Shown here piece by piece: positions 1 through 55,383 of a DNA stretch of 64,000 nt (position 1 is its first letter; the number at the start of each line of letters is the position of its first letter). The translations under genes were made by a program, and so were the position numbers. Origin of the DNA: Chloroflexota bacterium (GTDB lineage Bacteria > Chloroflexota > Dehalococcoidia > DSTF01 > RBG-16-68-14); NCBI GenBank assembly GCA_003228685.1, contig QIFC01000029.1, positions 1,759-65,758 on the forward strand. The letters run 5' to 3'. Below the pieces are notes generated by a model. That model was not told where the DNA came from. It worked only from the letters and a program-made list of their open reading frames with translations, and did no database searches.

Positions 1-983
1 TTCTCTTGCCGAGAGGCCAGGTCTCGAACCTCTCCGCCGGTCTGCTCGATCAAGTATTCGAAAAACAGGCTGCTCGCTTGGTAGTGGCGAGCGCTGCCGC
101 CCACCTCCTCCCAAGCGTTGAGCTGCGTGTCCGGCCGGTCTAGGAACGCTCCGTACGAACCCGAGCTGCCGCTGACCAATGCCGCGGCGAATTCAGACAG
201 GCCTTCGTTGACCCAGGCGGCTTCGTCGCGGTCCAGTTCAAGGTGGCTCAGGTGCTGGAGTTCATGGGCAAGGATGAAGACATACCTGGGCGAACCGGGC
301 GTCGCGGCCAGCGTATTCGCGTAGATCGTCTCGCGTTGGTTGCTATGCGGCGAGACGGCTCTCGGGTAGGTGTCCGCGTCGCTGACGTAGCCGCCGATGG
401 CCTCGCCGAGGTCAGCATGCAGAATCACGATTCTCCCGTCGCCGTCGACGCCCGGCGTTGGCGGAGGGCCGAACGCAGCCGTCACGACAGGCCAGACTCG
501 ATCCTCGAATGCGGCGACGGCCGCGTCGAGGTCCGCCGGCTCAGGCTCGAAGCCGTCCTCGAAGAAGAAGTAGGCGTGTTCCGACACGGCACGGAGGGAC
601 GCTGAGAGGGTCCGATAGCCCGGCTCGTCCTCAGGGGCAGCGGAGAGGACGAGTACGTCGAATTCCCGCAGGTCGCCGATAGCCGGCTGCGGCAGGTCGA
701 CCGTGCGCGGCACGCCGGCCGTCCCCTCGAAGCGCTGGGCTAGGTCGATCAGGTCGCGGGCAGCGGGCTCGTCCGTCCCAGTAGACAACGGAGCGGCGGT
801 TGCCGTCGGAGCCGGCGTTGGCAGCGGTCCATCGCCGCCCCCGCTACAAGCGAGGCCGACGGCGCCCAACAGGATCGCAAGAGCCGCCCCGACAACGTCG
901 AGGCGGCTCGAACTGCTAAGCCTGGTAGCTCTGTTAGCCAGCGCGCGGATGGGCCTTCTCGTAGACGCGGCGGACGTGCTCAT
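1..983 (-). CDS. Partial CDS (3' end lies beyond the left edge): secreted or lipoprotein-like zinc metallopeptidase of gluzincin type
   Basis: Absent from the ORF track because it runs off the window. I checked by hand most of the reverse frame from 983 down to 1 (1-300 and 600-983 codon by codon, 300-600 by continuous translation) and found no stop. ATG at 983-981. N-terminus is MSTSAASTRRPIRALANRATRLSSSSRLDVVGAALAILLGAVGLACSGGG (signal peptide plus Cys). Contains FILAHELQHL (HExxH encoded at 266-252) followed by WVNEGLSEF, as in MA-clan gluzincins. The start overlaps the recombinase 3' end by 50 nt, so it is uncertain. Confidence 0.5.
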   Translation of the reverse strand, partial: MSTSAASTRRPIRALANRATRLSSSSRLDVVGAALAILLGAVGLACSGGGDGPLPTPAPTATAAPLSTGTDEPAARDLIDLAQRFEGTAGVPRTVDLPQPAIGDLREFDVLVLSAAPEDEPGYRTLSASLRAVSEHAYFFFEDGFEPEPADLDAAVAAFEDRVWPVVTAAFGPPPTPGVDGDGRIVILHADLGEAIGGYVSDADTYPRAVSPHSNQRETIYANTLAATPGSPRYVFILAHELQHLSHLELDRDEAAWVNEGLSEFAAALVSGSSGSYGAFLDRPDTQLNAWEEVGGSARHYQASSLFFEYLIEQTGGEVRDLASRQE

Positions 984-1860
984 CCGTGATGCGCGTATAG
1001 ACCTGGGTTGTCGAGATATTTGCATGCCCAAGTAGCTCTTGAACGTTGCGAAGAGGCGCTCCGCCTCTCAGCATGTGGGTGGCGAAACTGTGTCGCAAGG
1101 AGTGCGGCGTCACGGGGCCTTCGATCTTCGCGTCCTTCGCGTACTGCTTCAGGATGAGCCAGAAGCCCTGCCGCGTAAGACGCTCACCACGACGGTTCAC
1201 GAAGAGAGCGCGCTCGCTCTTGTTCTTCACCATGCGCGTCCTGCCATCGTTCAGATAGACAACCAGCGCTCGTAGCGCCTGCGCGTGGATGGGGACCGCA
1301 CGCTCTTTCGCGCCCTTGCCCATACAGCGCGCCATGGGGCTGCGCTTATCCAGCGAGATGCTATCGAGGTCGAGCGATACCAGCTCGGTGACACGCAGGC
1401 CGGTGGCGTACAGCAGCTCTAGCATCGCCTGATCCCGCAGCGCTTCTGTCGTATTTCGCTTGGCCGGCTGCTCCAGCAACTCGTCCACCTGCTGCACCGT
1501 CAGCGGCCTGGGCAACGTCTTGCCAACGCGGGGCGACTCCAGGCTCTCGGTCGGGTTGGTCTTGATCGCGCCCTCCGCGTGGAGGAACTGGAAGAACGAT
1601 TTCACCGCGGCGACTTTGCGCGCGACGGACGCCCCTGCGTAACGCCGGTTCTTCAGCTCGATAACATAATCGACGATCGTGTCCTTGCCGACCCCTTGCC
1701 ACTCGATCGCGTGGCCGTTGCTGTTTGGGCTGGAACCGTTCCCGTTTTTCAGATAGATATCAAACTGAGACAGATCGTTTCGGTACGCGGCGATGGTGTT
1801 CTCCGATGCTCCTTTTTCGGCGGATAGGAAGTGCAGGAAGTGCCCTATGCGATCATCCAT
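934..1860 (-). CDS. Tyrosine site-specific recombinase, XerC/XerD family
   Basis: C-terminal HSLRHSFATHMLRGGAPLRNVQELLGHANISTTQVYT (R..HxxR..Y catalytic signature). N-terminus MDDRIGHFLHFLSAEKGASENTIAAYRNDL is typical of XerC/D. I placed the start at the internal ATG at 1860 rather than the track's 2133. An AGAGG Shine-Dalgarno (SD) lies upstream. Confidence 0.85.
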   Translation of the reverse strand: MDDRIGHFLHFLSAEKGASENTIAAYRNDLSQFDIYLKNGNGSSPNSNGHAIEWQGVGKDTIVDYVIELKNRRYAGASVARKVAAVKSFFQFLHAEGAIKTNPTESLESPRVGKTLPRPLTVQQVDELLEQPAKRNTTEALRDQAMLELLYATGLRVTELVSLDLDSISLDKRSPMARCMGKGAKERAVPIHAQALRALVVYLNDGRTRMVKNKSERALFVNRRGERLTRQGFWLILKQYAKDAKIEGPVTPHSLRHSFATHMLRGGAPLRNVQELLGHANISTTQVYTRITDEHVRRVYEKAHPRAG

Positions 1861-2296
1861 GACGCAGACGTTACCTCTTTTTGGGTATGGCCGGGGTTGT
1901 TTTTGTGTTCCGGGACTTGTGGGTGACCCCATACTACACGCCGCCATGGGCCTTGTCCAGCGATTGCAAGGCAAAGACATAAATCTTTCCGAGAAACTTT
2001 TCCACAACAGGCCGGATGCCGGATCACAACTGTACAGGCGCGTAGCCGGTAGCCGATCTCGCGCCCGGCCGACCCTGCGCCCGGCCGACCCCCGCGCCGC
2101 CAGCCCGGCCGGCGGCGCTGCCCTGGAGCACACCGACGTTGGCCGGGGCCGGAGCGCCAGATCATTAGCCTGCGCCCCGGGTCGCTGGGCGCATTATGGC
2201 GGCTCGACGGGAGCCGGCGGAGACGGGCAACTTGCCCGAGATACTCACCCCGGCTTGAACTGGCGACACGCGAAAAGCGGTCCGGCGCCTCGTGGC

Positions 2297-4767: not shown

Positions 4768-7700
4768 ATGCCATTCGGCTGCTTGCCTATGACCAACCAA
4801 GGCCCATTCGGCAACGAACCAGAGCAACCTCGGCCAGGGCAGACGGCGGAACCGCCACGCGCCCCTACGCTGCCGACTCAGCGAGGCGTGATCCCGCCGC
4901 AGTCCGAAGCCAAGCCGGAGACAGCGGCAACGCCAACTCGACCGGGCATCCCACCACTCCACGTATCAGGACCGGTCCTCATCTACGCCATCCTTGCGGT
5001 CATCCTCGTGTTCGCCGGCCTCCTGCGGCTGACGGCTCTCAACTGGGACGACAACAAGCACCTGCATCCGGACGAGCGGCACATCTCATCGACGCTCGGG
5101 CGGCTGGCGGTTCCCGGCAGCCTGAGCGCTTACTTCGATACCGACACCTCGTCGCTCAACCCCTACAACCGCGAGACGACCAGCTTCGTCTACGGGACCG
5201 CGCCCGTCTTCGCGGCGAAGATCGCCGGCAACCTGAGCGGCCCGCTCGGGTTCGGTGACAGAACTAGCTACGACGCCGTGACGATCGTCGGGCGTTTCCT
5301 CAGCGCGATGGCCGATATCGGCAGCGTGATCTTCGTCTTCCTGATCGCCCGCAAGCTTTTCGGAGCGCGGGCCGGCCTGCTGGGAGCACTCCTCTACACA
5401 TTCTCCGCGCTGCCGATCCAGCACGCACACTTCATGGTCGTCGACCCGTTCGCGACATTCTTCGGCGCTGGGGCGGTCTTCTTTGCGCTGCGCATCGTCA
5501 AGGATGGCCACTGGTCTGACTATGGCTTCGCGGGCCTCATGCTGGGGCTGGCCACGGCCTCGAAGCTCACGATGGTGTCGCTACTGCCGGTCATCATGCT
5601 GGCGGCCGGCATCCGCGCCTGGCCAACGCTCTATCAACTAGGACTCGATTACGTCAGACCAGACCGCGAGAAGCCGGAGACGCCAGCCCAAACAGGCCAC
5701 CCGATCGCCCGGCTCGTGCTTGGCCTAGGCTTGGTCCTGCTGGTGTCGTTCGTCATCTTCCGAGTCGCACAGCCGTACGCGTTCCAAGCGCCCGGCCTGA
5801 GCGACTTCGCCGTCTGGCAGGATGACTTCGACTGCGAGAGCTGCGGCACGTTCACCGAACTGGCGGGGCGAACACTGAACCTGAACGAGCAATTCGTCCT
5901 GGACCAAGCGAACCAGAAGGAGCTGCTTAGCACAGGATCGTGGCCGCCGAACGTCCAGTGGATCGGCAGGACGCCTCTCTTGTACCCAGCCAACCAGATG
6001 CTCCAGTGGGGCATGGGCCCAGCGCTTGGCATTGCCGCCGGACTGGCTGTGCTGTTCTACGCCTGGCGCGCGTTCGCGCGAAAGGAGCTGATCCTGCTGG
6101 TGCCGCTGGCTTGGGTGGCCGGCTACTTCTTCGTGATGGGGACCCAGTTCTCGCTCTACATGCGATATTTCCTGCCGCTCTATCCGATGCTAGCCGCGTT
6201 CGCCGGAGGGTTCCTGCTCGTAGTCTGGTCATGGGCGCAGAAGGGAGAACTGCCCGCGGCCGTGACGCAGCGATTCCAGAACCTCGCTAGACCGGCCGCC
6301 CTGGCGGCCAGGGGCGCCGTGGTCGCCGCCGTCCTGCTGACGGTACTCTGGGGGCTTGCCTACTTCAACATCTACTCTCAGCCCGTCACAAGAGTCGAAG
6401 CGTCGGCCTGGATCTATGCCAACATCCCTGCAGGCGCGACGATCTACGGCGAGCACTGGGACGACGATCTGCCTCTCAGCCTCGCCGGGATCGGGAGCAT
6501 CGGCCAGTACGAGACGGGAAACTTCGAGAACTTCAACATCGATAACAGGGAGAAGGTCGACAAGCTCCTGAGCAACCTCGACGCGGCGGACTACATCATC
6601 CTTGCCAGCGACCGGCTTTCACAGACGATCCCGCGAGCGCCCGCCAACTTCCCCGTAACGACGCGCTACTACGACGCGCTCTTCTCGGGCGAGTTGGGCT
6701 TCGAGCTGGTTGCCAAGTTCACGTCCTACCCAGAAATCTTCGGGATTGCGTTCCCCGACGGCGGCGCTGAGGAGGCGTGGACGGTCTACGACCATCCACC
6801 CGTCCACATCTTCCAGAAGGACGCCTCCGTCTACTCGCGCGACCGAGCGGTGTTCGTGCTGGGGGCCGACGCGTTTACAGACGGCCTCGGTATCCCGCCC
6901 TACCAGGCGGGGACGAACGGCTTGCTCCTGAGACCAGACGACCTGCAGGTGCAGCAGGAAGGCGGCACCTTCAGCAGCATTTTTGATGAGGACAGCGTTC
7001 AGAATAAGTTCCCGCTCTGGACGTGGCTCCTGGTCGTCGAGCTGATCTCACTCGCGGCGCTGCCGATCGGGTTCCTGATCTTCCGCGCCCTGCCCGACCG
7101 CGGCTATCTGCTGTCGAAGCCGCTCGGGTTCCTGGTGCTCGGCTACATCGTCTGGCTGGGCGCGAGCCTGAAGCTCTTCGACTTCAGCCGCACGAGCATC
7201 GGCGTGACGCTGCTGCTCATGCTGCTCGTCTCCGCCGGCGTCGCCTGGCTGACTCGCAATAGCATCCGTGACTTCGTGAAGCAGCACTGGCGCTCCATCC
7301 TCATGTGGGAGGCGCTCTTCCTGGGAGCGTTCCTGCTCTTCTACATGATCCGCATCAGCAACCCGGACCTCTGGCATCCGGCCCGGGGCGGCGAAAAGCC
7401 GATGGACTTCGCCTATCTGAACGCGATCATCCGCAGCACGTCCATGCCGCCCTACGATCCGTGGTTCTCGGGCGGCTATCTCAACTACTACTACTTCGGC
7501 CAGTTCCTCACGGCGACCATGATCAAGTTCACGGGCATTTTGCCTGAGGTTGGCTATAACTTGGCCGTGCCGCTGTTCTTCTCCCTTGCCGTGGGAGCGA
7601 CGTACTCGCTCGTCTACAACATGGCCGAGGGCGCGCGCCGGTTCATCCGCTGGCGCCCATCCGGCGGACGGATCGGACCTGCCGGACCGATCCTCGCGGG

Positions 7701-9816
7701 CTTTGGCGCCGTCTTCCTCGTCATGATCGTGGGAAACCTGGGTGGCATCGACCAATTGATCGCCAACTTCTCCGCGATCTCCCCGTGGCACGTTAACGCC
7801 AACTTGTCGTCGATTATTCCCGGCGTCGACGTGCCCATCCCAATAATCGGCGGAGCGGTCGCGACATTAGGCGGGATGAAGGCGATGTTGATCGATGGCG
7901 CCGACCTCAACCTGCGCACCGACTGGTACTGGGCGCCTAGCCGCATCATCGGGTCGCCGGACGGGCAGACAGCGCCGATCACGGAGTTCCCGTTCTTCAG
8001 CTTCCTCTTCGCCGACCTGCACGCACACATGATGGCGATCCCGTTCGCGATTACGTCGCTCGCCGTGGGCGCGGGTATCATCCTCAACGCGACGAAGTTG
8101 ATGCGAGAGAGCCCGGCGTACCGACAATGGGCCGGCTGGGGCATGGTCGTTGTGCTGGCGCTGGTGATCGGCGCGCTGCGATGGATCAACTCGTGGGATT
8201 ACCTCCCGTTCCTCATCATGGGTATCGTGGCCATCTTGGTCGCGGAACGCTTATCGGAGCGCACCTTCACATGGGCGATGGCAGGGAGGGCTGCGCTGAA
8301 GGCCGGCGCGCTCGTCGTGCTCACGGTCCTTCTCTTCCTGCCGTTCCAGTCCAACTACCAGCTGCCCGCCACGGGCTTCATTCGTCTGCACGAGCGGCAA
8401 ACCACGCCCTTCCACCAGTACCTGGCCCACTTCGGGGTGTTCCTGTTCCTCATTACCGGGTTCGTCTACTTCCTGGTGGCAAGGGGCGTGAAGCTGATGG
8501 GCGGACGCTCATTCCTGACGTCGCTTGCCGGCATCTTCATCGGCCTGACCATCCTGTCCGCGCTGATCGTCGGGCTCATCGGCCCGTTCCTGGACGCCGT
8601 GCCACTCTCGATCACCGTCAACGGCCTCTCCGGGACCGACTTCCTGCGAGATATGTTTGCCGGCATCTTCGCGCCGCTGCCGGGCGGCTCGCCTATCGAA
8701 CCCTCAGTCGACGGCGTGGGCAATCGCTACGCCACGCCCGTTGTGCCGTTCGCGCTCTTCGGACTGTCGCTGATCGTGCTGCTGGGCTGGCTCAGCCTGA
8801 GACGCCGCCCGAATGGGACTACAGCGGTCCAGCTCATGATGCTGGGCATGGTCGCGATGGCGCTGATCCTGAGCTTGGGAGTGGAAGTCGCCGTCCTCAA
8901 CCCGGACATCCAGCGCATGAACACCGTCTTCAAGTTCTACCTGCACGCCTGGATCCTGCTCGCGGTTCCGGCCGCGTTCGGGGCCTGGTACGTGCTCGAT
9001 GTGATCCGGCCAAGTGTGCCGTTCGCCCTATTCGAGGCGAAGCCGGAGCCAGAGCCTGTCCCCGCAGTCCTCACGCCCGCGCCCCAGGTGCCGGTGACAG
9101 CGGCCGAGGGCGAGCCTGAGGCGCCGCCGCTCGTAGCAGCGCCCGCGGCCGCAAGCGGGTTTGGGCTGCGCCTGACGGGCGGCTTGGTAAGACTCTTCGC
9201 GTTCGGAGGCGCCGCGCTCGTGCTCGCGGCACTGGTCTATCCGATCGTGGCCACGCCGCAGCGGGTCCAGGACCGCTTCGAGAACCAGGGCGCGATCAAG
9301 GCGACGACCGACGACGGTTTCGCTTACTTGCTGGGCGCTGAGTACCTGGATGATGGCCGACCGCTACAGCTCGTCGAAGACTATGCCGCCTTCCAGTGGA
9401 TACGCGAAAACGTCGAGGGCTCGCCCACGATCATCGAGGCCGTCACGCCGTCGTATCGCTGGGGCAACCGCTTCGCGATCAACACCGGCCTCCCCGCCGT
9501 GGCCGGCTGGGACTTTCACCAAACACAGCAGCGGGAAGGCCTGTTCTCGATCATCGGCGAGAACCTGATCAGAGCCCGGTTCGCCGAGGTCCAACGCTTC
9601 TACAACACGACCGACGCGATCGAGGCGCAGCTGATCTTGAAGAAGTACGACGTGCGCTACGTGATCGTCGGCGAGCTGGAGCGCATCTACTTCCCAGAGG
9701 GCATCGCCAAGCTGGAGCAGGGCCTCGGCGGCATGCTACGCCTGCGCTTCGATTCCGGCAGCACGCGCATCTACGAAGTCGAAGAGAGCACAACGTTCGT
9801 CGCAACAACCTCTTGA
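4768..9816 (+). CDS. Giant polytopic membrane protein: N-terminal GT-C/GT39 (PMT_2-like) region fused to a DUF2298 / Chlor_Arch_YYY domain
   Basis: 1682 aa with many TM helices. The first-loop motif is [15 protein letters not shown] (a GT-C acidic motif). The diagnostic [14 protein letters not shown] matches the YYY signature of TIGR03662/DUF2298. The start could be 4768 or 4789. Confidence 0.75.
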
Positions 9817-9852
9817 CAACGCTCCGCCCTGGAGCTAGCCTGCGAGTACATA

Positions 9853-9970
9853 CGACTAGTGCGGGAGCTGGGGATCCGCCACGGAGGCGGACGGCCCGGC
9901 TGAGAGGTCCCATCCGAGACGGGACGACCGCTAGACCTGATCTGGGTAATGCCAGCGAAGGGATCGACAA
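9853..9970 (+). promoter_or_regulatory. TPP (THI-box) riboswitch
   Basis: Contains the invariant elements GCUGAGAG (about 9898-9905) and ACCUGAUCUGGGUAAUGCCAGCGAAGGGA (about 9934-9962). It lies directly upstream of thiD. A possible promoter, TTGACA (9813-9818)-17 nt-TAGCCT, precedes it. Confidence 0.9.
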
Positions 9971-9978
9971 CTCCTGAC

Positions 9979-10004
9979 GCCGCCGGCAGCCCGGCGGCCG
10001 TTTT
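9979..10004 (+). terminator. Intrinsic terminator hairpin serving as the riboswitch expression platform
   Basis: GCCGCCGG (9979-9986), loop CAGC, CCGGCGGC (9991-9998), then CGTTTTC. It sits between the aptamer and the thiD start. Confidence 0.6.
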
Positions 10005-10073: not shown

Positions 10074-10952
10074 ATGAGCCGACGTGTGCCATCCGTCCTG
10101 ACGATCGCGGGCTCCGACTCCGGCGCGGGCGCCGGCATTCAGGCCGACCTCAAGACGTTCGCGGCCATGGGCGTCTTCGGCACGACCGCCATCACGGCCA
10201 TCACCGCCCAGAACACACTTGGCGTGCAGGATGTCCTGGCGTTGCCGCCGGAGTTGATCGCGGCGCAGATCGACGCCGTGGCGGGCGACATCGGCGCCGA
10301 CGTCGTGAAGACCGGCATGCTCGCGAACGTCGAGATCGTCGATGTCGTCGTCGCGAAGGTGACCGAGCACGCGCTCAGCCCGCTTGTCGTCGACCCGGTG
10401 ATGGTGTCGAGCAGCGGCGCCCGCCTCTTCGAGGACGACGCCGTGGACGCGATCCGGGAACGGCTCCTGCCGCTCGCGACGATCATCACGCCCAACCTGC
10501 GGGAGGCTGAAGTCCTGCTCGGACGCAAGCTGACTTCGTGGGAGGAGATCCGGGCCGGCGCGGAGGAGCTGGTCGCGATGGGCGCGGGCGCGGCGATTAT
10601 TAAGGGTGGCCACCCCGCAGTCGAAGGTAGCGAAGGCGCCGCGACCGACCTGCTCTACGACAGCGAGGGCCTGCGCGAGTACACCACCACCCGCATCGAC
10701 ACCAACAACACGCACGGCACCGGCTGCACGTTCGCGTCGGCGATCGCGGCGGCGCTGGCGCGCGGGACCAACCTGCGGGGGTCGGTCGCGATGGCGAAGG
10801 CCTACGTTACGAAGGCGCTCCAGAGCGCGTATCCAGTCGGCCAAGGGCACGGGCCCGTTCATCACTTCTTCAGGTTCTGGCAACCAGGCCTGTACGACAC
10901 TGCGCAAGTAGCAGCCCAACAGACAACGGCGCAGCAAGCAGCGGACAACTAG
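10074..10952 (+). CDS. thiD: Hydroxymethylpyrimidine/phosphomethylpyrimidine kinase
   Basis: LTIAGSDSGAGAGIQADLKTF and NTHGTGCTFASAIAA motifs. Downstream of the TPP riboswitch. Confidence 0.9.
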   Translation: MSRRVPSVLTIAGSDSGAGAGIQADLKTFAAMGVFGTTAITAITAQNTLGVQDVLALPPELIAAQIDAVAGDIGADVVKTGMLANVEIVDVVVAKVTEHALSPLVVDPVMVSSSGARLFEDDAVDAIRERLLPLATIITPNLREAEVLLGRKLTSWEEIRAGAEELVAMGAGAAIIKGGHPAVEGSEGAATDLLYDSEGLREYTTTRIDTNNTHGTGCTFASAIAAALARGTNLRGSVAMAKAYVTKALQSAYPVGQGHGPVHHFFRFWQPGLYDTAQVAAQQTTAQQAADN

Positions 10953-10955
10953 TAG

Positions 10956-12302
<1,347 letters not shown>

Positions 12303-43378: not shown

Positions 43379-45055
43379 ATGCGCGTTGCCAAACTCTTGC
43401 TGAAGCCCCTCATACTCTTGGCCGCTGTCGTAGCAGGCTCTGTTGCTACGTCCTTGTTGGCGACCGATGTCAGGACCGTCGGTCTCTTCCTGAACGATAC
43501 AGCAGCATATGACGGCTATACGTTGTTCGCGCCCAATGATGGCAACACTTACCTCATCAATAACGACGGGCAAGCAGTCCACACCTGGGACTCCAGCGGT
43601 TGGAATGGCGTGACTCCTTATCTGCTGGATGACGGCAGCATCATTCAAGTCACAGCGTTTCCCAACGAGGGCATCCAGCGTCGTGCGTGGGACGGAACGG
43701 TCTTGTGGAGCTATCGTATCGCTGGAGCCCACCATGACATTGAAGTGTTGCCGAATGGCAACATCTTGATGATTGTGAACGAATTTAAGACCGCCGCCGA
43801 GGCGACACAAGCGGGCAGGGACCCTGCATCCCTCAATCCAGCCAGGTCGTTTCCTCTCATGATCGAAAAGATCATCGAAGTTGAGCCCGTGGGAGCGTCG
43901 GGCGGCAACATCGTGTGGGAGTGGAACGTGTGGGACCATCTAATCCAGGACTTTGATGCTTCGAAGGACAATTTCGGCAGCGTTGCTGACCATCCCGAAC
44001 TGGTGGACGTTAACTTCGGCGACCCGCCGTTTTTTGCTTTTAATGACGCGGACTGGCTGCACGCCAACGGCATCGACTACAATCCTGAGTTCGACCAGAT
44101 CATGGTTAGCGTCCGGCAATTCAATGAATTCTGGGTTATTGACCACAGCACATCGACGGAGACGGCGGCAAGCCACAGTGGCGGCAACAGTGGTAAGGGG
44201 GGTGACTTGCTCTATCGCTGGGGCGACCCCCAAGCGTATGACGCTGGAGACGAGAGCGACAAGATGCTATTCGCTCAACACGACGCCCAGTGGATCGTGC
44301 CCGGCCTGCCAGGGGCGGGTAACATCCTCGTCTTCAACAACGGAGTACGCCGCCCGAGCGGAAAATACTCCTCGGTCGACGAGCTGGTGCCGCCAGTCGA
44401 TGCGTTTGGTGACTACTCCCTGTCCCCTGGCGAGGCATACGGGCCGGCAGATCTCGCTTGGTCCTACTCGAGTCCCTCCGATTTCTACTCTTCGATACTC
44501 TCAGGCGCAAGCCGCCTCCCGAATGGAAACACGCTCATTGATGCCGGCGTCCAAGGGACGTTCTTTGAAGTGACGGTCGAGGGTGAGACGGTCTGGAAGT
44601 ACGTTAATCCGGTCACTGCAGCCGGGCCGCTGCGGCAGGGCGAGCCCCCTCCCGTGGCCATCGCTCCACCGAATCCCAACGCGGTGTTCAGGATTTATCG
44701 CTACCCGTTGGATTATCCGGCGTTCGAAGGGAGAGACTTGACCCCACAAGGCCTACTCGAACTTCCGAAACCAACACCAGTGATCACCGCGACGTCTACT
44801 GCCACTCCTACGGCGCCAGCAACGGCCACGCCAACGAGCACCCCTGTTCCAGCGGGAGTGCTGGGCGACGCTGACGGAGATGGCAGCGTTACAGCTATCG
44901 ATGCTGCGCTTCTCTTACAGTTTACCGCCGGCCTCTTGGCTGAACTTCCTGACCCGGTCAGAGCTGACATGAACGGCGATGGCTTGCTGAACGCGATCGA
45001 TGCCGCGCTCATCCTGCAGACCACGGCCGGATTGTTCGCAGCGACGCCGGCATAG
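43379..45055 (+). CDS. Secreted arylsulfotransferase (ASST)-like beta-propeller protein with Pro/Thr linker and C-terminal dockerin, paralog 1
   Basis: GGAGG SD and a signal anchor. Motifs HHDIEVLPNGNILM, GGNIVWEWNVWDHLIQDFD, WVIDHSTSTETAASHSGGNSGKGGDLLYRWGDPQAY and NGNTLIDAGVQGTFFEVT. The C-terminus GDADGDGSVTAIDAALLLQF...ADMNGDGLLNAIDAALILQ gives two dockerin Ca-loops. Confidence 0.6.
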   Translation: MRVAKLLLKPLILLAAVVAGSVATSLLATDVRTVGLFLNDTAAYDGYTLFAPNDGNTYLINNDGQAVHTWDSSGWNGVTPYLLDDGSIIQVTAFPNEGIQRRAWDGTVLWSYRIAGAHHDIEVLPNGNILMIVNEFKTAAEATQAGRDPASLNPARSFPLMIEKIIEVEPVGASGGNIVWEWNVWDHLIQDFDASKDNFGSVADHPELVDVNFGDPPFFAFNDADWLHANGIDYNPEFDQIMVSVRQFNEFWVIDHSTSTETAASHSGGNSGKGGDLLYRWGDPQAYDAGDESDKMLFAQHDAQWIVPGLPGAGNILVFNNGVRRPSGKYSSVDELVPPVDAFGDYSLSPGEAYGPADLAWSYSSPSDFYSSILSGASRLPNGNTLIDAGVQGTFFEVTVEGETVWKYVNPVTAAGPLRQGEPPPVAIAPPNPNAVFRIYRYPLDYPAFEGRDLTPQGLLELPKPTPVITATSTATPTAPATATPTSTPVPAGVLGDADGDGSVTAIDAALLLQFTAGLLAELPDPVRADMNGDGLLNAIDAALILQTTAGLFAATPA

Positions 45056-45245: not shown

Positions 45246-46955
45246 GTGATAAAGATACGCTGGATTCTCGTGATCATCGGATTTATGGCCCTCGCCATTG
45301 GCGCAACGTCGATGACAGGAGCCACCGCCGAGCAGACGGTCGGTCTGTTTCGGAACGACCCAGGCGCCTTCGACGGCTACACGCTGTTCGCACCGAACCG
45401 CTCGAACGTAACATATCTCATCGATAACGACGGCCAGATCGTGAACACTTGGACGAGTTCGTACGGGCCTGGGGTATCTGTCTACCTGAAGGAGAACGGC
45501 AATCTCATCCGCACCGCGAACATACGCGAACTCAATAACACGTTCGGAGCACTAGGCGGTGGCGGTGGGCGAATCGAAGAGTACGCATGGGACGGTACCC
45601 TCATCTGGGGCTACAACTACTCAGTCGGCCTAGAAGAGTATCTAGCAGACCCCGTCTTCCAGCACCACGACATCGCGGTCCTGCCGAACGGCAACGTGCT
45701 GATCCTCGCTTGGGAGTACAAGTCCGGCGCCCAGGCCATCGCAGCTGGCCGGGACCCAGCACTGATGGAGGACGGAGTCGTATTCCCGGAACACATCGTC
45801 GAGGTTGAGCCGGTAGGAGAGACGGGCGGCAACATCGTCTGGGAGTGGTACAGCTGGGACCACATGATCCAGGACTTCGACGAGACGCAACAGAACTTCG
45901 GCGTGGTCGGCGACCATCCAGAGCTGATCGACATCAACTACGGCAATACCATCGATGACTGGCAGCACGCAAACGCGCTCAACTACAACGAAGAGCTTGA
46001 CCAGATTATGATCAGCGTTCGCGCGTTCGACGAACTCTGGGTGATCGACCACAGTACCACGACGGAGGAAGCGGCGAGTCACAGCGGAGGCGACAGTGGC
46101 ATGGGCGGCGACTTGATCTACCGCTGGGGCAACCCCCAGGCCTACGACCGCGGGGACGAGAGCGACCGACAGTTCTTCATGCAGCACGACACACAATGGA
46201 TCGAACCCGGCCTGGACGGAGCGGGGAACATCCTCGTCTTCAACAACGGGCAGGAACGCGAGCCTGAAGAGTTCTCTACAGTCGTCGAAATTGTGCCGCC
46301 GGTCGACGCGTCCGGAAACTACATACTCGAGGACGGCGCGGCCTTCGGGCCTGCGGCTCCCACATGGAGCTATCAGGCTCCCAACCCCACGGACTTCTAC
46401 TCATCGTTCATCTCGGGAGCGCAGCGTCTGCCGAACGGCAATACGCTGATCGATGCCGGCGCCCAGGGCCACTTCTTTGAGGTCACTTCAGAGGGCGACA
46501 TCGTTTGGGACTACATAAGCCCGGTCACCGCAGATGGGCCGCTCGCGCAAGGCGTGGTTCCGGAGACTCGCGCCAACATCGTGTTCCGAGCGACGCGCTA
46601 TGGAAAGGATTACCCTGCCTTCGAAGGCAAGGACCTCGTACCCATGGGCGTCATCGAGCTACCGAAGCAGGAAGGAACGCCAGATCCGACCGACACACCG
46701 GAACCCACGGAGACGCCGGAGCCGACGGACACGCCGGAACCGACGGCAACGCCGGTGCCGGTCGTGGCGGGCGACGCGAACTGTGACGGTACGGTCAACG
46801 CGATCGACGCGACGCTTGTGCTGCAGTTGTCCGCGGGAGTCGTCTCTTCACTGGAGTGCGAAGGGAACGCGGACGTGAACGGCGACGGCGCAGTTACGGC
46901 TGTTGATGCCACGCTGATCTTGCAGTTCATCGCGGGCCTGCTTCCTGAGCTGTAA
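45246..46955 (+). CDS. Secreted ASST-like beta-propeller protein with PT/PE linker and C-terminal dockerin, paralog 2
   Basis: Same motif set as paralog 1 (HHDIAVLPNGNVLIL, GGNIVWEWYSWDHMIQDFD, WVIDHSTTTEEAASHSGG). Linker DPTDTPEPTETPEPTDTPEPTATP. Dockerin GDANCDGTVNAIDATLVLQL...ADVNGDGAVTAVDATLILQF. Confidence 0.6.
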   Translation: MIKIRWILVIIGFMALAIGATSMTGATAEQTVGLFRNDPGAFDGYTLFAPNRSNVTYLIDNDGQIVNTWTSSYGPGVSVYLKENGNLIRTANIRELNNTFGALGGGGGRIEEYAWDGTLIWGYNYSVGLEEYLADPVFQHHDIAVLPNGNVLILAWEYKSGAQAIAAGRDPALMEDGVVFPEHIVEVEPVGETGGNIVWEWYSWDHMIQDFDETQQNFGVVGDHPELIDINYGNTIDDWQHANALNYNEELDQIMISVRAFDELWVIDHSTTTEEAASHSGGDSGMGGDLIYRWGNPQAYDRGDESDRQFFMQHDTQWIEPGLDGAGNILVFNNGQEREPEEFSTVVEIVPPVDASGNYILEDGAAFGPAAPTWSYQAPNPTDFYSSFISGAQRLPNGNTLIDAGAQGHFFEVTSEGDIVWDYISPVTADGPLAQGVVPETRANIVFRATRYGKDYPAFEGKDLVPMGVIELPKQEGTPDPTDTPEPTETPEPTDTPEPTATPVPVVAGDANCDGTVNAIDATLVLQLSAGVVSSLECEGNADVNGDGAVTAVDATLILQFIAGLLPEL

Positions 46956-47166: not shown

Positions 47167-48687
47167 ATGAGTAGATCGCAGCAGACTCCGGTCACCGATC
47201 GTGTCGATTCTATCACGTCCAGGCTGGCTGAAGTCGTAAGACCGGTAGGCCGGCTTCTGGCAAGACAGCCTCTCCTCATACTAGGTCTGATCCTCGCGCT
47301 CACCTTCGGCATTTATGCCCAGGCGATCAACGACTGGTTCCAGACCGACGACTTCCTCCTCCTCAGAGGCGCAAAGGCCGTTCCGTTCCTGACCTACGTG
47401 CGGGAGGCTTTCGATTTTCGCGACTTTGAGCCCCTACGGCTCTTCGCATACCGGCCGCTGGCGTTCATCACGACCGATGTCCTCTACATCACCTTCGGTC
47501 TAGACCCGGCGCCGTATCATCTGCTCCAGATCGCCGCCCACATGCTCAACGTTGTGCTGGTCTGGCACATCGCTCGCCGCATGACGCGGTCGCTCCTGGT
47601 CGCTAACTTGGCCGCGCTCGTGTTCGCCATCCACCCGATCTACAGCCAGACTGTCATTTGGATCGCAGCCAACAACTCGCAGCTAGCCCTGACGGGCCAA
47701 CTGCTGTCATTCGTCGCGTTCTTGGAGTTCTCCAGGCGCAACTCGTGGCCATGGCTCGGAGCTTCGGTCGTCTTGTACGCAATCGCGATTCTCTTTCACC
47801 AAGAAGGCTTCCTGCTCCCGTTGGTGCTCGCGATCTACTGGTGGTTCGAGCGAGGAGAGCTATCTCGAGATTCGATCCGGTCCGCAACCGGCATCTTCGC
47901 GCCGTACGGCATTGTCCTCTTATCGTTCCTCGCTATCCAGTCGTTCAACGCCAACGAGTCGGGGTTTGACAGTTTCTTCAAGCCGGAGTTCGCTCTCGCC
48001 GAAACCTACGCGGGCGCGCTGGCGATGTCCGCGTTCCCCTTCTTGCTCGCCAAGATGCAATGGTTCCACGTGCTGGCGGCCGTCGTCGGTGTCCTCTCGG
48101 TTGGCTTCGCGTTCGTCGTCAACCCGCAGCGACGCTCTGTGATCATCGTCGCCGTCGTCTGGTACCACGTTTCGCTCCTGCTTACCTTGCTCTTCTACAC
48201 CAACCTCGTGGTTGCCGTCGTCCCGTTCATGGCTCGAAAGCTCTATCCTGCTGGGCCTGCTCTTGCGATCTTGATCGCCCTCGTCGCGGAGGCCTTCTGG
48301 ATCGTCGTCCGGCCGCGGCTGCCTGCTATGGCGCCGCAAGCGGCTCTCGCAATCGTCGTCGTCCTCTCGGCACTCGTGGTGTTTCGAACCGATGAGATGA
48401 TAGACGAATTCAACGTCTTGGCGGAGGATAGCCAGGCGTTCATTAACGGGTTGCAAGCCGAGCACCCGACGCTGGCGGAGGGTGACACGCTCTACGTAGC
48501 GAACGCACCGCTTGCGCTCGTCGTTTTCTGTACGCCCGGCGTCCTGTGTTACCTGGAGGACGCGATCTATATGTACTATGGCGAGGTCCGAGTGGAGCGC
48601 GTGTCCGTGGCCGAGCTGGATTCGCTCCAGCTGGGCGACGACGAACGCTCGTTCTGCTGGCTATGCGCGCCCGCCAGGTCTGACTAG
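47167..48687 (+). CDS. GT-C fold membrane protein, PMT_2/TMTC-like (DUF1736-type)
   Basis: FQTDDFLLL acidic loop motif, then YRPLAFITTDVLYITFGLDPAPYHLLQIAAHMLNVVLVWHI and FAIHPIYSQTV. This pattern is typical of bacterial TMTC-like O-mannosyltransferase homologs. ATG at 47167 (GTG at 47158 is possible). Confidence 0.55.
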   Translation: MSRSQQTPVTDRVDSITSRLAEVVRPVGRLLARQPLLILGLILALTFGIYAQAINDWFQTDDFLLLRGAKAVPFLTYVREAFDFRDFEPLRLFAYRPLAFITTDVLYITFGLDPAPYHLLQIAAHMLNVVLVWHIARRMTRSLLVANLAALVFAIHPIYSQTVIWIAANNSQLALTGQLLSFVAFLEFSRRNSWPWLGASVVLYAIAILFHQEGFLLPLVLAIYWWFERGELSRDSIRSATGIFAPYGIVLLSFLAIQSFNANESGFDSFFKPEFALAETYAGALAMSAFPFLLAKMQWFHVLAAVVGVLSVGFAFVVNPQRRSVIIVAVVWYHVSLLLTLLFYTNLVVAVVPFMARKLYPAGPALAILIALVAEAFWIVVRPRLPAMAPQAALAIVVVLSALVVFRTDEMIDEFNVLAEDSQAFINGLQAEHPTLAEGDTLYVANAPLALVVFCTPGVLCYLEDAIYMYYGEVRVERVSVAELDSLQLGDDERSFCWLCAPARSD

Positions 48688-48738
48688 GAAGGCGTGGTAA
48701 ACTCACGCGTACGCTCGGCCTACAGTTGGAGGTACTAC

Positions 48739-50403
48739 GTGCTTACGAGACGTCTCATACTTTTGGCTCTGTTCTTGGCCGGCATGGCTGTAAGCATGGT
48801 GGTATTTTCAGCTAGTGCCACGGAGCAGACTATGGGCCTGTTCCTCAACAACCCGGGCTCTTTCGACGGCTATACCCTGTTTGGAACGCTTGGCACCGAC
48901 ACCGCCTATCTGATTGACAATGATGGCAGGCTCGTTCACTCCTGGGACGAAATTAGCGGAAACGGCATCGAACTTCTAGAGGATGGCAGCCTGATCCGTG
49001 GCCCAAACCAAGAAACATTCGGAGCACCGCAAACGGTGACGCGGCTTGATTGGGATGGAACTGTCATGTGGGAGTTCGAGTACTCCGTTGCTGACAGGTC
49101 TCTTCATCATGACATTGAAGTTCTGCCCAACGGCAACGTGCTGATAGTCTCCTGGGAGATTTGGCCGTCCGCGGCCGCAATTGCGGCCGGCAGGAACCCC
49201 TCCTTGTTGGAAGAAGGCCAGCTTCGATCGTTCAGCCTTATTGAGGTCGAACCAACGGGATCCAGTGGCGGGAACATTGTCTGGGAATGGCGTTCTTGGG
49301 ATCACCTCGTACAGGACTTCGACCCGACCAAAGACAACTTTGGTGTCGTCGCCGAACACCCCGAACTCATCGACATCAATTTCATCGAGTTCACGCAGTC
49401 TCCTGGTGGACAAGCGACCTGGCATCGCGCAAACTCCGTCGACTATAACGAGGAACTCGACCAGATCATTGTGAGCATCCGCAACTTCAGCGAGATCTGG
49501 GTGATCGACCATAGCACGACGACCGAGGAAGCAGCGAGCCACACTGGGGGCGACAGCGGCAAGGGTGGGGACCTTCTCTACCGTTGGGGCAACCCGCAGG
49601 CGTACGGCGCCGGCGACCAGAATGACCAGCTGAGCTTCTCTCAACACGATGCCCAGTGGATCGAAGCTGGTCTGCCTGGCGAGGGCAACATCTTGATCTT
49701 CAACAACGGACGCGGCCGCACACCGGAGCCGTTCTCCACAGTCGACGAGATCGTGCCGCCGGTTGACGAGTCCGGCAACTACTCGCTCGACCCAGGCCAA
49801 GCCTACGGGCCCACGGCGCCCACGTGGAGTTATCAGGCCCCTAACGCGCCTGACTTCTATTCCTCTTTCGTCTCCTCAGCGCAGCGCCTGCCGAACGGCA
49901 ACACACTGATCAACGCCGGCGCCCAAGGCACCTTCTTTGAAGTCACGCCGTCTGGAGAGACGGTGTGGCGGTACGTTAACCCCGTGAAGCGATGCTGTGG
50001 CCCCATGACGCAAGGTGATCCAATACCACCACAGATTGGCGAGCTGGGAGGTGGGAATACGACCTTCCGAATACTCCGCTACGCTCCGGACTATCCTGGT
50101 CTCCAAGGCAGAGAATTGACCCCGCAGGGCGCGATCGAACTGCCGAAGCCTACGCCCGAGACCACTGTGACGCCAACGGAGCCGCCGACGCCCACGCCAG
50201 TAACCCTCATTCTGGTTGGGGACGCGAATTGCGACGGGGATGTCAACAGCATTGATGCCGCGCGAATTCTTCAGTACTCCGCCGGCCTTACCGATCTGCC
50301 GCCTTGCCCCTTAAACGCAGACGTGAACAACTCAGGCGACATCAGTAGCGTGGACGCCACGCTTGTCTTACAGGCTGTCGCCGGACTGATTAGGTTCGAC
50401 TGA
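48739..50403 (+). CDS. Secreted ASST-like beta-propeller protein with PT linker and C-terminal dockerin, paralog 3
   Basis: Same motif set (HHDIEVLPNGNVLIV, GGNIVWEWRSWDHLVQDFD, WVIDHSTTTEEAASHTGG). Dockerin GDANCDGDVNSIDAARILQY...ADVNNSGDISSVDATLVLQA. Start set at GTG 48739, six nt after GGAGG (the track start is 48694). Confidence 0.6.
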   Translation: MLTRRLILLALFLAGMAVSMVVFSASATEQTMGLFLNNPGSFDGYTLFGTLGTDTAYLIDNDGRLVHSWDEISGNGIELLEDGSLIRGPNQETFGAPQTVTRLDWDGTVMWEFEYSVADRSLHHDIEVLPNGNVLIVSWEIWPSAAAIAAGRNPSLLEEGQLRSFSLIEVEPTGSSGGNIVWEWRSWDHLVQDFDPTKDNFGVVAEHPELIDINFIEFTQSPGGQATWHRANSVDYNEELDQIIVSIRNFSEIWVIDHSTTTEEAASHTGGDSGKGGDLLYRWGNPQAYGAGDQNDQLSFSQHDAQWIEAGLPGEGNILIFNNGRGRTPEPFSTVDEIVPPVDESGNYSLDPGQAYGPTAPTWSYQAPNAPDFYSSFVSSAQRLPNGNTLINAGAQGTFFEVTPSGETVWRYVNPVKRCCGPMTQGDPIPPQIGELGGGNTTFRILRYAPDYPGLQGRELTPQGAIELPKPTPETTVTPTEPPTPTPVTLILVGDANCDGDVNSIDAARILQYSAGLTDLPPCPLNADVNNSGDISSVDATLVLQAVAGLIRFD

Positions 50404-53608: not shown

Positions 53609-53684
53609 CTCTAGAAGCTGGACGCTAGAGGCTTGAGGTAGGGACGGCCTTGGGGCCGCCGGCCACGCGTTCGCTTAGTTCGCC

Positions 53685-53707
53685 CATCCTGAGCTTGTCG
53701 AAGGATG
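53685..53707. repeat. REP-like hairpin element, copy A (CATCCT-GAGCTTGTCGA-AGGATG)
   Basis: 6-bp inverted arms with an 11-nt loop, lying between convergent genes. Produces the spurious LRQAQD/SLSKDE-type peptides seen in overlapping track ORFs. Confidence 0.7.
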
Positions 53708-53722
53708 AGACTAGCCACCACT

Positions 53723-54817
53723 CTACCCCGCCAGCGCCGCCTCGATTTCGTCCTTACGCTCCGGGTAGCGCGACGCGTACGCGCGCACGAGCCCAAAGCA
53801 GCCGCCGATCATCATGTCGCCGTGGGGCGTCGCGAAGTACGGCTGAAGCCTGCTCCCACGCAGGCGTCCGCGCTGCGGCCCTGTCACAGAGACCAGCGGC
53901 TTGGCGCCGTTCACCGCAGGCGATTCGGCGTAGAAGACTCCATGCCCCTTGCTGTTGAAGACTTCCTCGTGCTCCAGCGTGCCCGCTACGAGCCGCTCCG
54001 TAAAGTCCTCGATCTGGTCGGTGGTCATCTCGCCAGTGTGGTGCTCGTACAGGCTGTGGATGTGTGTGCCGCGCAGGTGGAACGCCAGCGCGTGCATGTT
54101 GCCTAGGTTGAGCACGAGCTGCGTCTCCCATTCCGCCACCTGCGGGTCCTGGAGCGCCCCCAGGGCCGCTGCGGGGCCCGTGTCGAGGAAGACGGTGGGC
54201 GACGCGACATCGACGCAGGAGAGCATCGTGCGGGCGCGCGTGAGGTAGTCCGGCAGCTCCTCCGGCAGGTAGGCGAAGGTGAGCAGATCGTTCTCGCGCT
54301 CGACGACGCGCTTGAGGTGATCGAAGCGAAACAGCCGGTCCGAATAGTCCGGCGGCGAGTCGCCGTGGTCGAGGCAGCCCAGCGCCAGGCCGTCGAAGTC
54401 GACGTCGACATCAAACGCGGCCAGCGCGGTGCGGATCGCGGCGAGGTCGAGGTCGCGCAATTCGACGCGGTCGACGTCATCGAGCGAGCGGGCCTCGTCT
54501 TCAGAGACGATCCGCACGCCCATCGCCTCGACGCGGCCTAGGTCGTCGTCGAACGTGCGCGCGGCGTCAGGCGTCGCGTACGCCGAGCCTCCAGCCTTGA
54601 GATGATCTTCCAACGCCCAGTGGCAGGGGCCACCGCCCTGCGTCACGCCGGTCAGCAGCAGCGCCCGTCTCGCCTCGGTCGCGCGCCGGATCCGGCCTTC
54701 CGCGATCTTCGTCGCGCTGGGCATGACGAGCTTGATGCTGTTCTCGACCGGCCCGGACGAATCGAAGAGCAGGATGTCCTGCGTGCCGGTGCCCATATCG
54801 ACGGCCAAGATGCGCAT
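53723..54817 (-). CDS. ASKHA (actin-like ATPase) fold protein, DUF1786-like
   Basis: N-terminal MRILAVDMGTGTQDILLFD phosphate-1 motif. Length and pattern recall DUF1786 (annotated as putative PFL-activating-enzyme-like). Family assignment is from memory only. Confidence 0.45.
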   Translation of the reverse strand: MRILAVDMGTGTQDILLFDSSGPVENSIKLVMPSATKIAEGRIRRATEARRALLLTGVTQGGGPCHWALEDHLKAGGSAYATPDAARTFDDDLGRVEAMGVRIVSEDEARSLDDVDRVELRDLDLAAIRTALAAFDVDVDFDGLALGCLDHGDSPPDYSDRLFRFDHLKRVVERENDLLTFAYLPEELPDYLTRARTMLSCVDVASPTVFLDTGPAAALGALQDPQVAEWETQLVLNLGNMHALAFHLRGTHIHSLYEHHTGEMTTDQIEDFTERLVAGTLEHEEVFNSKGHGVFYAESPAVNGAKPLVSVTGPQRGRLRGSRLQPYFATPHGDMMIGGCFGLVRAYASRYPERKDEIEAALAG

Positions 54818-54860
54818 GACTGCATTGTATCAGCGGGAGGCGCGCCCCCAGAGACCCAAG

Positions 54861-54902
54861 CACCCGCCGGACGAGGAAGGTAAGTCGATAATCCGGCGGG
54901 TG
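54861..54902 (-). terminator. 11-bp perfect-stem hairpin downstream of the small ORF (possible terminator or attenuator)
   Basis: CACCCGCCGGA (54861-54871) pairs with TCCGGCGGGTG (54892-54902) across a 20-nt loop. On the reverse strand it is followed by CTTGGGTCTCT, a weak U-tract. Confidence 0.35.
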
Positions 54903-54979
54903 GCCTGGGGTCCAACGACCTCGACCGGGCCTTGGTTGATGGTGGGAGAAGCCCGGACGAGTTGGCTACGGCGTTCGAG

Positions 54980-55078
54980 CTAGGATCGCGGCTCCGTTAG
55001 CTCGCCCGTGTACCACTGATGGAAGAGATAGGCGCTCGACATCAAGAGCACGAGCACCAGGATGAATGCGAAAGTCAT
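54980..55078 (-). CDS. Small hydrophobic peptide (32 aa, single TM)
   Basis: ATG at 55078-55076, five nt after GGGGGA. Product is MTFAFILVLVLLMSSAYLFHQWYTGELTEPRS. Too short for the ORF track. It lies downstream of the strong promoter with GAAC-N4-GTTC boxes. Confidence 0.4.
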   Translation of the reverse strand: MTFAFILVLVLLMSSAYLFHQWYTGELTEPRS

Positions 55079-55131
55079 TTGAGTCCCCCTTCAAGAGGTG
55101 GTGGCCGGCACATCTGGCTCAGCCTCGACTG

Positions 55132-55187
55132 GAACGTTCGTTCTTATCGAACATGCGTACTATAGAACATGCATGCTGTATTGTCAA
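55132..55187 (-). promoter_or_regulatory. Near-consensus sigma70 promoter (TTGACA-17 nt-TATAGT) with one perfect and one imperfect LexA/Cheo-type box
   Basis: On the reverse strand, -35 TTGACA runs 55187-55182 and -10 TATAGT runs 55164-55159. GAACGTTCGTTC at 55132-55143 is a perfect GAAC-N4-GTTC just downstream of the -10. GAACATGCGTAC at 55149-55160 has one mismatch and overlaps the -10. Confidence 0.5.
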
Positions 55188-55296
55188 GGGCCTGTTGGGA
55201 GGTTTCTAGAGCGAATCTAGACTGAATCTACAGCGAGTCTGCGGAGTGGTCCGTGTCGCATACATCGGTCAGGGGGGCCAGACTCTTCGCGGAGTT

Positions 55297-55319
55297 CATC
55301 CTGAGCCTGTCGAAGGATG
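55297..55319. repeat. REP-like hairpin element, copy B (CATCCT-GAGCCTGTCGA-AGGATG)
   Basis: 22 of 23 nt identical to copy A. Intergenic, downstream of the fumarase beta gene. Confidence 0.7.
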
Positions 55320-55383
55320 AGCGTCGTAGGGAGTGTAGCTAGATGGCTAGCCTCTAGCTTCAAGCGTCTAGCGTCCAGGCATG

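Follow-up and report, generated by a model that had tools for sequence, protein, structure and literature searches.

A single-gene unit for a predicted membrane microprotein with a conserved operator-like array over its promoter in uncultured Dehalococcoidia

Small membrane proteins under the control of LexA include SidA (PMC4211646), DinQ and TisB (PMC3567139), and YneA (PMC6051672), and they are of two kinds, namely, the type I toxins TisB and DinQ (PMC3567139) and the division inhibitors SidA and YneA (PMC4211646, PMC6051672). SidA of Caulobacter crescentus is a 29-aa LexA-controlled division inhibitor of the inner membrane (PMC4211646), and YneA, SosA, ChiZ, and DivS belong to the wider class of SOS division inhibitors (PMC6051672, PMC13396833). 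The LexA motif of Gram-positive bacteria is GAAC-N4-GTTC, and GTTC half-sites recur in the LexA boxes of alpha-proteobacteria (PMC3323433). The cyanobacterial LexA box, RGTACNNNDGTWCB, has been described as closely related to the CGAAC-N4-GTTCG box of Bacillus subtilis (PMC3091678). Here we describe a 32-codon open reading frame (ORF) in a 64-kb stretch of contig QIFC01000029.1 from a bacterium of the class Dehalococcoidia, phylum Chloroflexota; this whole stretch is referred to below as the window. Comparison with related loci established that the ORF is a real conserved protein-coding gene for a predicted single-pass membrane peptide, that it forms an autonomous one-gene unit with its own predicted promoter and a terminator-like hairpin, and that this promoter bears a strongly conserved putative operator array overlapping the core promoter.

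In its anatomy, the unit appears closer to the division inhibitors than to the type I toxins, since it has no known RNA antitoxin, an ordinary Shine-Dalgarno (SD) sequence, and a conserved extramembrane motif. As in the SidA class, the product is a very small bitopic membrane protein, and the gene stands alone behind a promoter occluded by a repressor, which is predicted here from sequence; neither has an antitoxin RNA. SidA, YneA, SosA, ChiZ, and DivS are mutually non-homologous, and a new non-homologous member is therefore to be expected in a new phylum. The differences concern the interaction with FtsW/I/N, a trait of the SidA class that is not known for the microprotein, the lack of a LysM or other extracytoplasmic domain, and the ASKHA-fold gene that usually adjoins the microprotein gene. 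In addition, yneA, sosA, and chiZ adjoin lexA (sidA does not), whereas no gene with a LexA_DNA_bind or Peptidase_S24 domain lies within 3-10 kb of the small ORF in the contexts examined. With TisB/IstR-1 and DinQ/AgrB of Escherichia coli (PMC3567139), the locus shares a peptide of 27-32 residues with a single transmembrane (TM) segment, operators over the promoter (dinQ also has two boxes), and a terminator close after the ORF. In contrast to these systems, no antisense or divergent small RNA (sRNA) gene was found at the small-ORF loci, the family has no apparent conserved inert leader or processing requirement, there is no sequence similarity, and the TM helix of the microprotein is not amphipathic.

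The small gene and its promoter

The unit lies on the minus strand and is made up of the following features, in the order of transcription.

55182-55187, minus strand: -35 element TTGACA, found in all promoters recovered (sets partly selected on the promoter pattern)
55165-55176, minus strand: box A, GCATGCATGTTC, in the spacer between -35 and -10; family consensus G-Y-A-Y-N3-T-GTTC
55159-55164, minus strand: -10 element TATAGT, the final two bases of which are the first two of box B; family form TA(T/C)(A/G/C)GT
55148-55161, minus strand: box B, AGTACGCATGTTCG, from -8 to about +5; the best conserved dyad
55131-55144, minus strand: box C, AGAACGAACGTTCC, 16-17 bp 3' of box B; a perfect GAAC-N4-GTTC, present in long-leader members only and varying there as GRAC-N4-RTTC
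55079-55152, minus strand: predicted 5' leader of about 73-74 nt; family range 18-95 nt
54980-55078, minus strand: 32-codon ORF for the predicted single-pass membrane microprotein, with a TM stretch at residues 2-20, an HQWYT belt, and an acidic tail
54923-54958, minus strand: first hairpin of the 3' untranslated region, -20.7 kcal/mol
54855-54909, minus strand: second hairpin, GC-rich and terminator-like, with CCUUCCUC in its loop, -35.7 kcal/mol, 17-18 pairs

A preliminary description of this DNA, made from its letters alone, had proposed a 32-aa ORF with one TM helix, and this frame is present at 55078-54980, as the only copy in the window, with the product MTFAFILVLVLLMSSAYLFHQWYTGELTEPRS. 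A profile search of 5.8 billion proteins retrieved 177 clusters, all of them short, unnamed or hypothetical, and derived from Chloroflexota/Dehalococcoidia metagenomes, and a full HMMER scan of 1.8 billion representatives gave only ten small relatives, along with spurious repetitive giants. The related loci were gathered through the protein of the downstream gene, a member of family DUF1786. The resulting set comprises 80 loci with an identity of 65-84%, and the closest relatives are metagenome-assembled genomes (MAGs) labelled Chloroflexota or Dehalococcoidia. A homologous ORF was present in 27 of the 80, on the same strand and 150-900 nt upstream of the DUF1786 gene (1.8 kb in L014), and because these loci had been chosen by the neighbouring protein, they are unbiased evidence for the conservation of the small ORF. 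The lineage that carries the gene is an uncultured one of the Chloroflexota and is abundant in soil.

The pattern of variation is that of a protein-coding gene. Every one of the 15 distinct proteins has exactly 32 codons, and the median ratio of nonsynonymous to synonymous substitution rates (dN/dS) was 0.19. The third codon position varied in 28 of 31 columns, compared to 16-19 for positions 1 and 2. Furthermore, 10 metagenome contigs encode the identical peptide in DNA sequences that have diverged at synonymous sites; as this set was selected by peptide identity, it is weak as proof alone. The family consensus reads M-x-F-A-L-x-L-x-L-V-L-x-L-S-S-A-Y-L-F-H-Q-W-Y-T-G-[DE]-L-x-E-P-x-P, and the conserved extramembrane tail motif HQWYTGEL is under purifying selection. 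The members of a second subgroup, MQFAI..SLVL.IS..LLL[YF]QF[WV]T..., have Arg/Pro-rich tails of 36-66 residues, which suggest a cytoplasmic C-terminus. No Pfam or NCBIfam family matched the microprotein, and 27 members scanned up to E = 10 gave only noise.

Among divergent species, the mean pairwise identity was 78% for the promoter (-35 to +12), 73% for the ORF, 50% for the 3' region, and 46% for the leader. The leader, with a length from 18 to 95 nt, is thus the least conserved segment, and in half of the family it measures 18-23 nt and carries a plain, free GGAGG. The alignment of 34-42 distinct promoters gave TTGACA - N12/13 - (T)GTTC - TA(T/C)(A/G/C)GT - AC - N3 - TGTTC, with GTTC-TAnnGTAC-N4-GTTC as the invariant core. 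The conserved element consists of two abutting 12-bp dyads of the form G-N-A-C-N4-GTTC, with centres 16 bp apart, that cover the spacer and the -10/+1 region; the opposite strand shows them as a pair of adjoining AGAAC-N4-GTAC(T/G) boxes, 16 bp from centre to centre. In box A, G1 occurred in 41 and A3 in all of 42 promoters, and the N4 positions were variable. The GTTC and GTAC tetramers were fixed and the N4 spacers variable also in loci gathered through DUF1786 or the peptide, not the motif, and this combination is the hallmark of a dyad-binding protein rather than of selection on an RNA or a coding sequence. In every recovered promoter, box A is located in the spacer and box B extends from -8 to about +5, a placement in which a bound repressor would exclude RNA polymerase. 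The G at -8 (TATAGT, not TATAAT) is explained by the GT that box B shares with the -10 element. Short-leader members have no box C, and many of them contain a further TTTGTTC at a distance of 32 bp on the upstream side of box A.

In the window, the -35 and -10 elements are 17 nt apart and match at 11 of 12 positions. The TTGACA-17 nt-TATAGT promoter claimed in the preliminary description is the sole promoter-like match on either strand between 53500 and 56500, where 0.5 matches were expected. The other elements that it had named were also retrieved, namely, a box over the -10, which is the box B 12-mer GTACGCATGTTC at 55160-55149 on the gene strand (GAACATGCGTAC as first given), a perfect GAAC-N4-GTTC downstream of the -10, which is the box C 12-mer GAACGAACGTTC at 55143-55132 on the gene strand, and a GGGGGA SD at 55089-55084 (minus strand), 5 nt 5' of the ATG. 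The leader length presumes a predicted start site 7 nt past the -10. In the 64 kb, GAAC-N4-GTTC was observed 3 times where 1.1 were expected, a count reached by 7 of 100 shuffled sequences, and GTAC-N4-GTTC was observed once against 0.9 expected. A lone box in 64 kb is hence within chance, and what exceeds chance is the combination of the elements and their conservation across dozens of related genomes.

The autonomy of the unit is supported by its hairpins and by its distribution. The preliminary description had placed a hairpin at 54861-54902, which is present but is only the inner part of the longer hairpin at 54855-54909. A post-ORF hairpin was found in every locus compared, and at 8 of the 17 pairs of the second hairpin at least one sequence was altered on both sides with pairing kept. 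A 20-base promoter pattern retrieved 24 matches from the JGI metagenomes, 23 of which belong to this gene: 22 are followed by the ORF, and in one the contig breaks off just within a family-like ORF. The remaining match is unrelated, and the scan showed the small-ORF promoter in front of no other gene. Moreover, the module of promoter and ORF occurs without DUF1786 in loci L243, L250, L258, and L260.

Two observations concern the hairpins themselves. In a comparison of 10 sequences, the anti-SD-like CCUUCCUC in the loop (54873-54880) did not vary, nor did the inner stem CGCCGG/CCGGCG, while the outer stem covaries; the loop may be a hint, the sole one in the unit and unexplained, of control between the 5' and 3' ends. 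In a short-leader subgroup (L019, L021, L028, L031, L032, L039, L051, and L065), the post-ORF hairpin is near-invariant, GAACGGCCGTTCCC-N10-GGGAGCGGCCGTTC, and holds a perfect GAAC-N4-GTTC without covariation.

The candidate repressor

These features can be brought together in a model in which a near-consensus sigma-70 promoter would drive the 32-residue single-pass membrane protein, in a unit closed by the GC-rich terminator-like hairpin. A repressor seated on the two abutting dyads, and on the third 16-17 bp downstream, would exclude RNA polymerase and keep the gene silent. This repressor would be encoded elsewhere and would most likely be the LexA of the lineage, given that the dyads conform to the LexA consensus of Gram-positive bacteria and cyanobacteria. 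Were it lost, for instance upon DNA damage, a burst of peptide would follow from the strong promoter and the ordinary SD, and this peptide would insert into the membrane and act there, either as a division inhibitor of the SidA/YneA kind or as a membrane-perturbing peptide of the TisB/DinQ kind. The microprotein is probably tightly repressed and stress-induced, as judged from the array, and SOS control of the small ORF is plausible. What we infer here is which protein represses the gene, which signal induces it, and how the peptide acts, and the model as a whole, with an autonomous unit, a repressor that is most likely LexA, and a burst of membrane peptide on repressor loss, is put forward tentatively, its chances falling slightly short of even.

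Box B, AGTACGCATGTTCG, fits RGTACNNNDGTWCB exactly, a consensus that is cyanobacterial and may not be that of the host (PMC3091678), and box C fits GAAC-N4-GTTC, which is Gram-positive and may not be that of the host either (PMC3323433). Like the LexA operators of these two groups (PMC3323433, PMC3091678), the small-ORF boxes are dyads of 12-14 bp in which one half is an invariant GTTC, the other half is G-N-A-C, and the 4 nt between them are free to vary, and they are positioned over the core promoter; they differ in forming a 16-bp phased array of two to three boxes. Matches to RGWAC-N4-GTWCB across 713 kb of related DNA fall almost exclusively in the small-ORF promoter. The LexA of Dehalococcoides reportedly uses the Gram-positive box. 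Other Cheo-like matches (window 48642-48655, L025, and L099) are inside coding sequence and look like chance; that of the window, AGAACGAGCGTTCG, is a good match but falls within the final part of a coding region, at a distance of 40 nt from the arylsulfotransferase gene that follows, and is probably fortuitous.

When searched by tblastn with LexA of E. coli and B. subtilis and with RecA of E. coli, the window and about 130 related loci yielded neither lexA nor recA, and a plasmid collection contained 317 LexA-like records, with no Chloroflexota among the matches listed. In the contexts examined, no gene for a helix-turn-helix (HTH), LexA (LexA_DNA_bind), or Peptidase_S24 protein was found within 3-10 kb, and no HTH domain was found in the small divergent genes of close relatives. 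The sole regulator-type neighbour is a sigma-70 region-2 protein in L099. The absence of a regulator gene within 3-10 kb favours a global trans-acting repressor.

Several observations weigh against the model. The left half of boxes A and B is GTAC, GCAC, or GCAT and never GAAC, which also sets them apart from the published LexA operators, and position 2 of box A is C in 22 promoters, T in 17, G in 3, and A in none. The perfect GAAC-N4-GTTC, which the preliminary description had named as a LexA-type box, is indeed present in the window as box C, but it is the least conserved of the boxes, reading GGAC...ATTC in relatives and being absent from the short-leader half. In most contexts, there is no SOS gene near the unit, and the annotated parts of the window contain ordinary metabolism genes and no SOS genes. 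The TM segment is uniformly hydrophobic, in contrast to the charged amphipathic helix of TisB, and the near-constant adjacency of the ORF to DUF1786 is left unexplained by a repressor/SOS model. Other regulators also read comparable arrays, since ArsR/SmtB proteins have 12-2-12 operators with a TGAACA-N2-TGTTCA core and ribbon-helix-helix (RHH) proteins bind 8-bp phased arrays. We consider the chances that the operator belongs to LexA to be roughly even.

The array could accordingly be read by another trans-acting repressor, be it of the ArsR/SmtB type, another winged-helix dyad binder, or an RHH protein that recognizes the 8-bp alternation of GTAC and GTTC, in which case the signal would not be DNA damage but, for example, metal, redox, or envelope stress. 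Apart from the non-canonical left halves of boxes A and B and the lack of a linked SOS gene, the phasing of the TGTTC pentamers at 16 bp and the TTTGTTC 32 bp further upstream in the short-leader group speak for this possibility, and the conserved interfacial residues of the peptide (His, Gln, Trp, and Tyr) indicate no particular signal. However, specialised repressors are normally encoded beside their targets, and none was found in at least five different contexts; box B, in turn, fits a published LexA consensus exactly (PMC3091678). We regard such a repressor as unlikely, although it is the most serious competitor to LexA. To our knowledge, none of the CopY/BlaI, PadR, Rex, Fur, NrdR, GlnR, PhoP, and MerR-type motifs fits the spacing or the half-sites.

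Other members of the regulon were also looked for on viral contigs. A tandem-box scan gave at least 120 matches and was uninformative, and the 16-base promoter-core pattern gave 21, which is about the number expected by chance. One unrelated, low-GC viral contig, L224 (about 1870-1920, GC 0.42), contains three boxes phased at 16 bp, GAACATCTGTTC-TATA-GCACCTATGTTC-TATA-GTACATATGTTC, in the same architecture as the small-ORF operator, and L231 (about 2275-2305) is grouped with it. A phage collection contained no match to the L224 contig.

The DUF1786 neighbour and other readings of the unit

The gene that usually follows the small ORF lies outside the transcription unit and has its own promoter.

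53723-54817, minus strand: DUF1786 gene (ASKHA fold), the usual downstream neighbour, with its own promoter
54824-54832, minus strand: extended -10 element of DUF1786, TGATACAAT, ending 6 nt 5' of the ATG; a separate, probably leaderless promoter

The position of TGATACAAT, which ends 6 nt before the DUF1786 ATG, implies a leaderless mRNA, and most relatives have an equivalent TGnTAnAAT (TGCTACAAT) or TACACT element before DUF1786. A structure of the protein was predicted from database homologues with a predicted local distance difference test (pLDDT) score of 92. It matched the Hsp70 nucleotide-binding domain, ROK kinases, PPX, MreB, and FtsA, all at E of about 1e-5, and on this model DUF1786 is a distant member of the ASKHA superfamily. 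Many His and Cys residues are invariant across the family, which lacks a close structural relative, and the structural matches lend no support to the Pfam annotation of DUF1786 as a pyruvate formate-lyase activating enzyme. A sequence search of the Protein Data Bank (PDB) revealed no relative, the literature searched does not mention DUF1786, and the exact protein of the window had no record in the protein databases searched.

The microprotein might be a functional partner of DUF1786, such as a membrane anchor or modulator, so that the pair would be the real unit; this idea is compatible with repressor control. In the contexts reached through the peptide, the ORF was always immediately 5' of DUF1786 on the same strand, and it holds this position in nearly every context, while the other neighbours upstream and downstream differ, with fumarase, methyltransferase, giant proteins of 863-3063 aa, and a sigma-factor-like gene on the upstream side. 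The basic tails of the long members, with their inferred cytoplasmic C-terminus, could meet a cytoplasmic protein. On the other hand, the ORF is missing from 53 of the 80 DUF1786 loci and occurs without DUF1786 in the four loci named above; the two genes have separate promoters with a strong hairpin in between, and genes about 300 bp apart can stay neighbours simply through common descent. The linkage is thus suggestive but not obligatory, and we consider the partnership improbable. Still more doubtful is the combination in which the array is a hybrid of Gram-positive and cyanobacterial LexA operators and the microprotein an SOS checkpoint effector acting with or on DUF1786. In the sublineage of L243 (2268-3329), L250, and L260, which has no DUF1786 at this site, the small ORF faces a gene for an ATP-dependent DNA ligase in convergent orientation, and no box was found upstream of the ligase gene.

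The preliminary description had likened the peptide to TisB and suggested an unseen antisense RNA. A type I toxin of the TisB/DinQ kind would have its mRNA checked by an antisense or divergent sRNA and its primary transcript translationally inert. What recalls such systems is a small hydrophobic peptide (32 residues, one hydrophobic stretch at 2-20) behind a LexA-like operator, a window leader of about 73 nt that contains a CCUCU able to pair with a portion of the SD, and the conserved anti-SD-like CCUUCCUC in the loop of the 3' hairpin. A TM helix with an acidic tail also brings Fst to mind. However, a promoter-like site for an antisense transcript was found in 0 of 19 loci by a consensus scan, which an atypical promoter could escape, and nothing is conserved upstream of the -35, which implies that a divergent gene of the IstR/AgrB kind is absent. 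Conservation is lowest in the leader, no conserved structure was found in it, and the short-leader half has 18-23 nt with an exposed GGAGG, which leaves no conserved SD trap. No toxin family was matched even at E = 10, the single copy in the window is syntenic across relatives, and purifying selection acts on the extramembrane motif. The toxin analogy and its antisense RNA thus found no specific support, and we judge this interpretation very unlikely.

The location of the ORF 5' of DUF1786 and the hairpins that follow it might suggest that it attenuates DUF1786 as a leader peptide or regulatory upstream ORF, or that the region is a non-coding RNA. Either reading is hardly credible, given the dN/dS of 0.19 and the conserved HQWYTGEL motif, the DUF1786 promoter that lies 3' of the hairpin and is leaderless in the window, the presence of the ORF alone on some contigs, and the absence of any Rfam match in the region of the small ORF at the gathering threshold and up to E = 10.

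Genomic surroundings and biological meaning

In the window, the unit stands between a Fumerase_C (fumarase C-terminal-domain) gene at 56022-55384 and the DUF1786 gene at 54817-53723, all on the minus strand. The flanking repeats resembling repetitive extragenic palindromic (REP) sequences, which the preliminary description had noted, were borne out at 55297-55378 and 53611-53709. They form an inverted pair that brackets the ORF-DUF1786 unit, each with a CATCCTGAGC(Y)TGTCGAAGGATGAG hairpin and a CTAG-rich arm, and their 21-mer core has only two sites in the window, which are these two copies. Short CTAGA(T/C)TC repeats directly upstream of the promoter (55204-55230, minus strand) are common to the closest relatives, L003-L009, but not to more distant species.

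Elsewhere in the window, a thiamine pyrophosphate (TPP) riboswitch at 9851-9980 (plus strand, 56.6 bits) is located 5' of thiamine genes, namely, a ThiD-like gene (10074-10952) and ThiC (10968-12302), followed by ThiG, ThiE, and ThiO. Three arylsulfotransferase-like paralogues (43379-45055, 45246-46955, and 48694-50403, plus strand) all carry a dockerin domain at the C-terminus and are interspersed with two proteins of 509-536 aa without a Pfam match. A gene of the tyrosine recombinase/phage-integrase family is found close to the window start (934-2133, minus strand), and an ORF of 1682 aa spans 4768-9816 (plus strand).

The microprotein represents an overlooked family of 177 clusters that are hypothetical or nameless in their sources. 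Its operator is precise and testable in an uncultured, soil-abundant lineage of whose stress regulation nothing is known. Should the operator not be that of LexA, it would still mark a tightly repressed microprotein. If it is, the array would establish what an SOS box looks like in these Dehalococcoidia, so that their SOS regulon would become predictable from MAGs alone, and a member from the Chloroflexota would join the polyphyletic class of SOS-induced small membrane effectors. If, in addition, such an SOS effector acts with DUF1786, the two would constitute an unrecognised damage-response module in a phylum with an essentially unknown SOS system.

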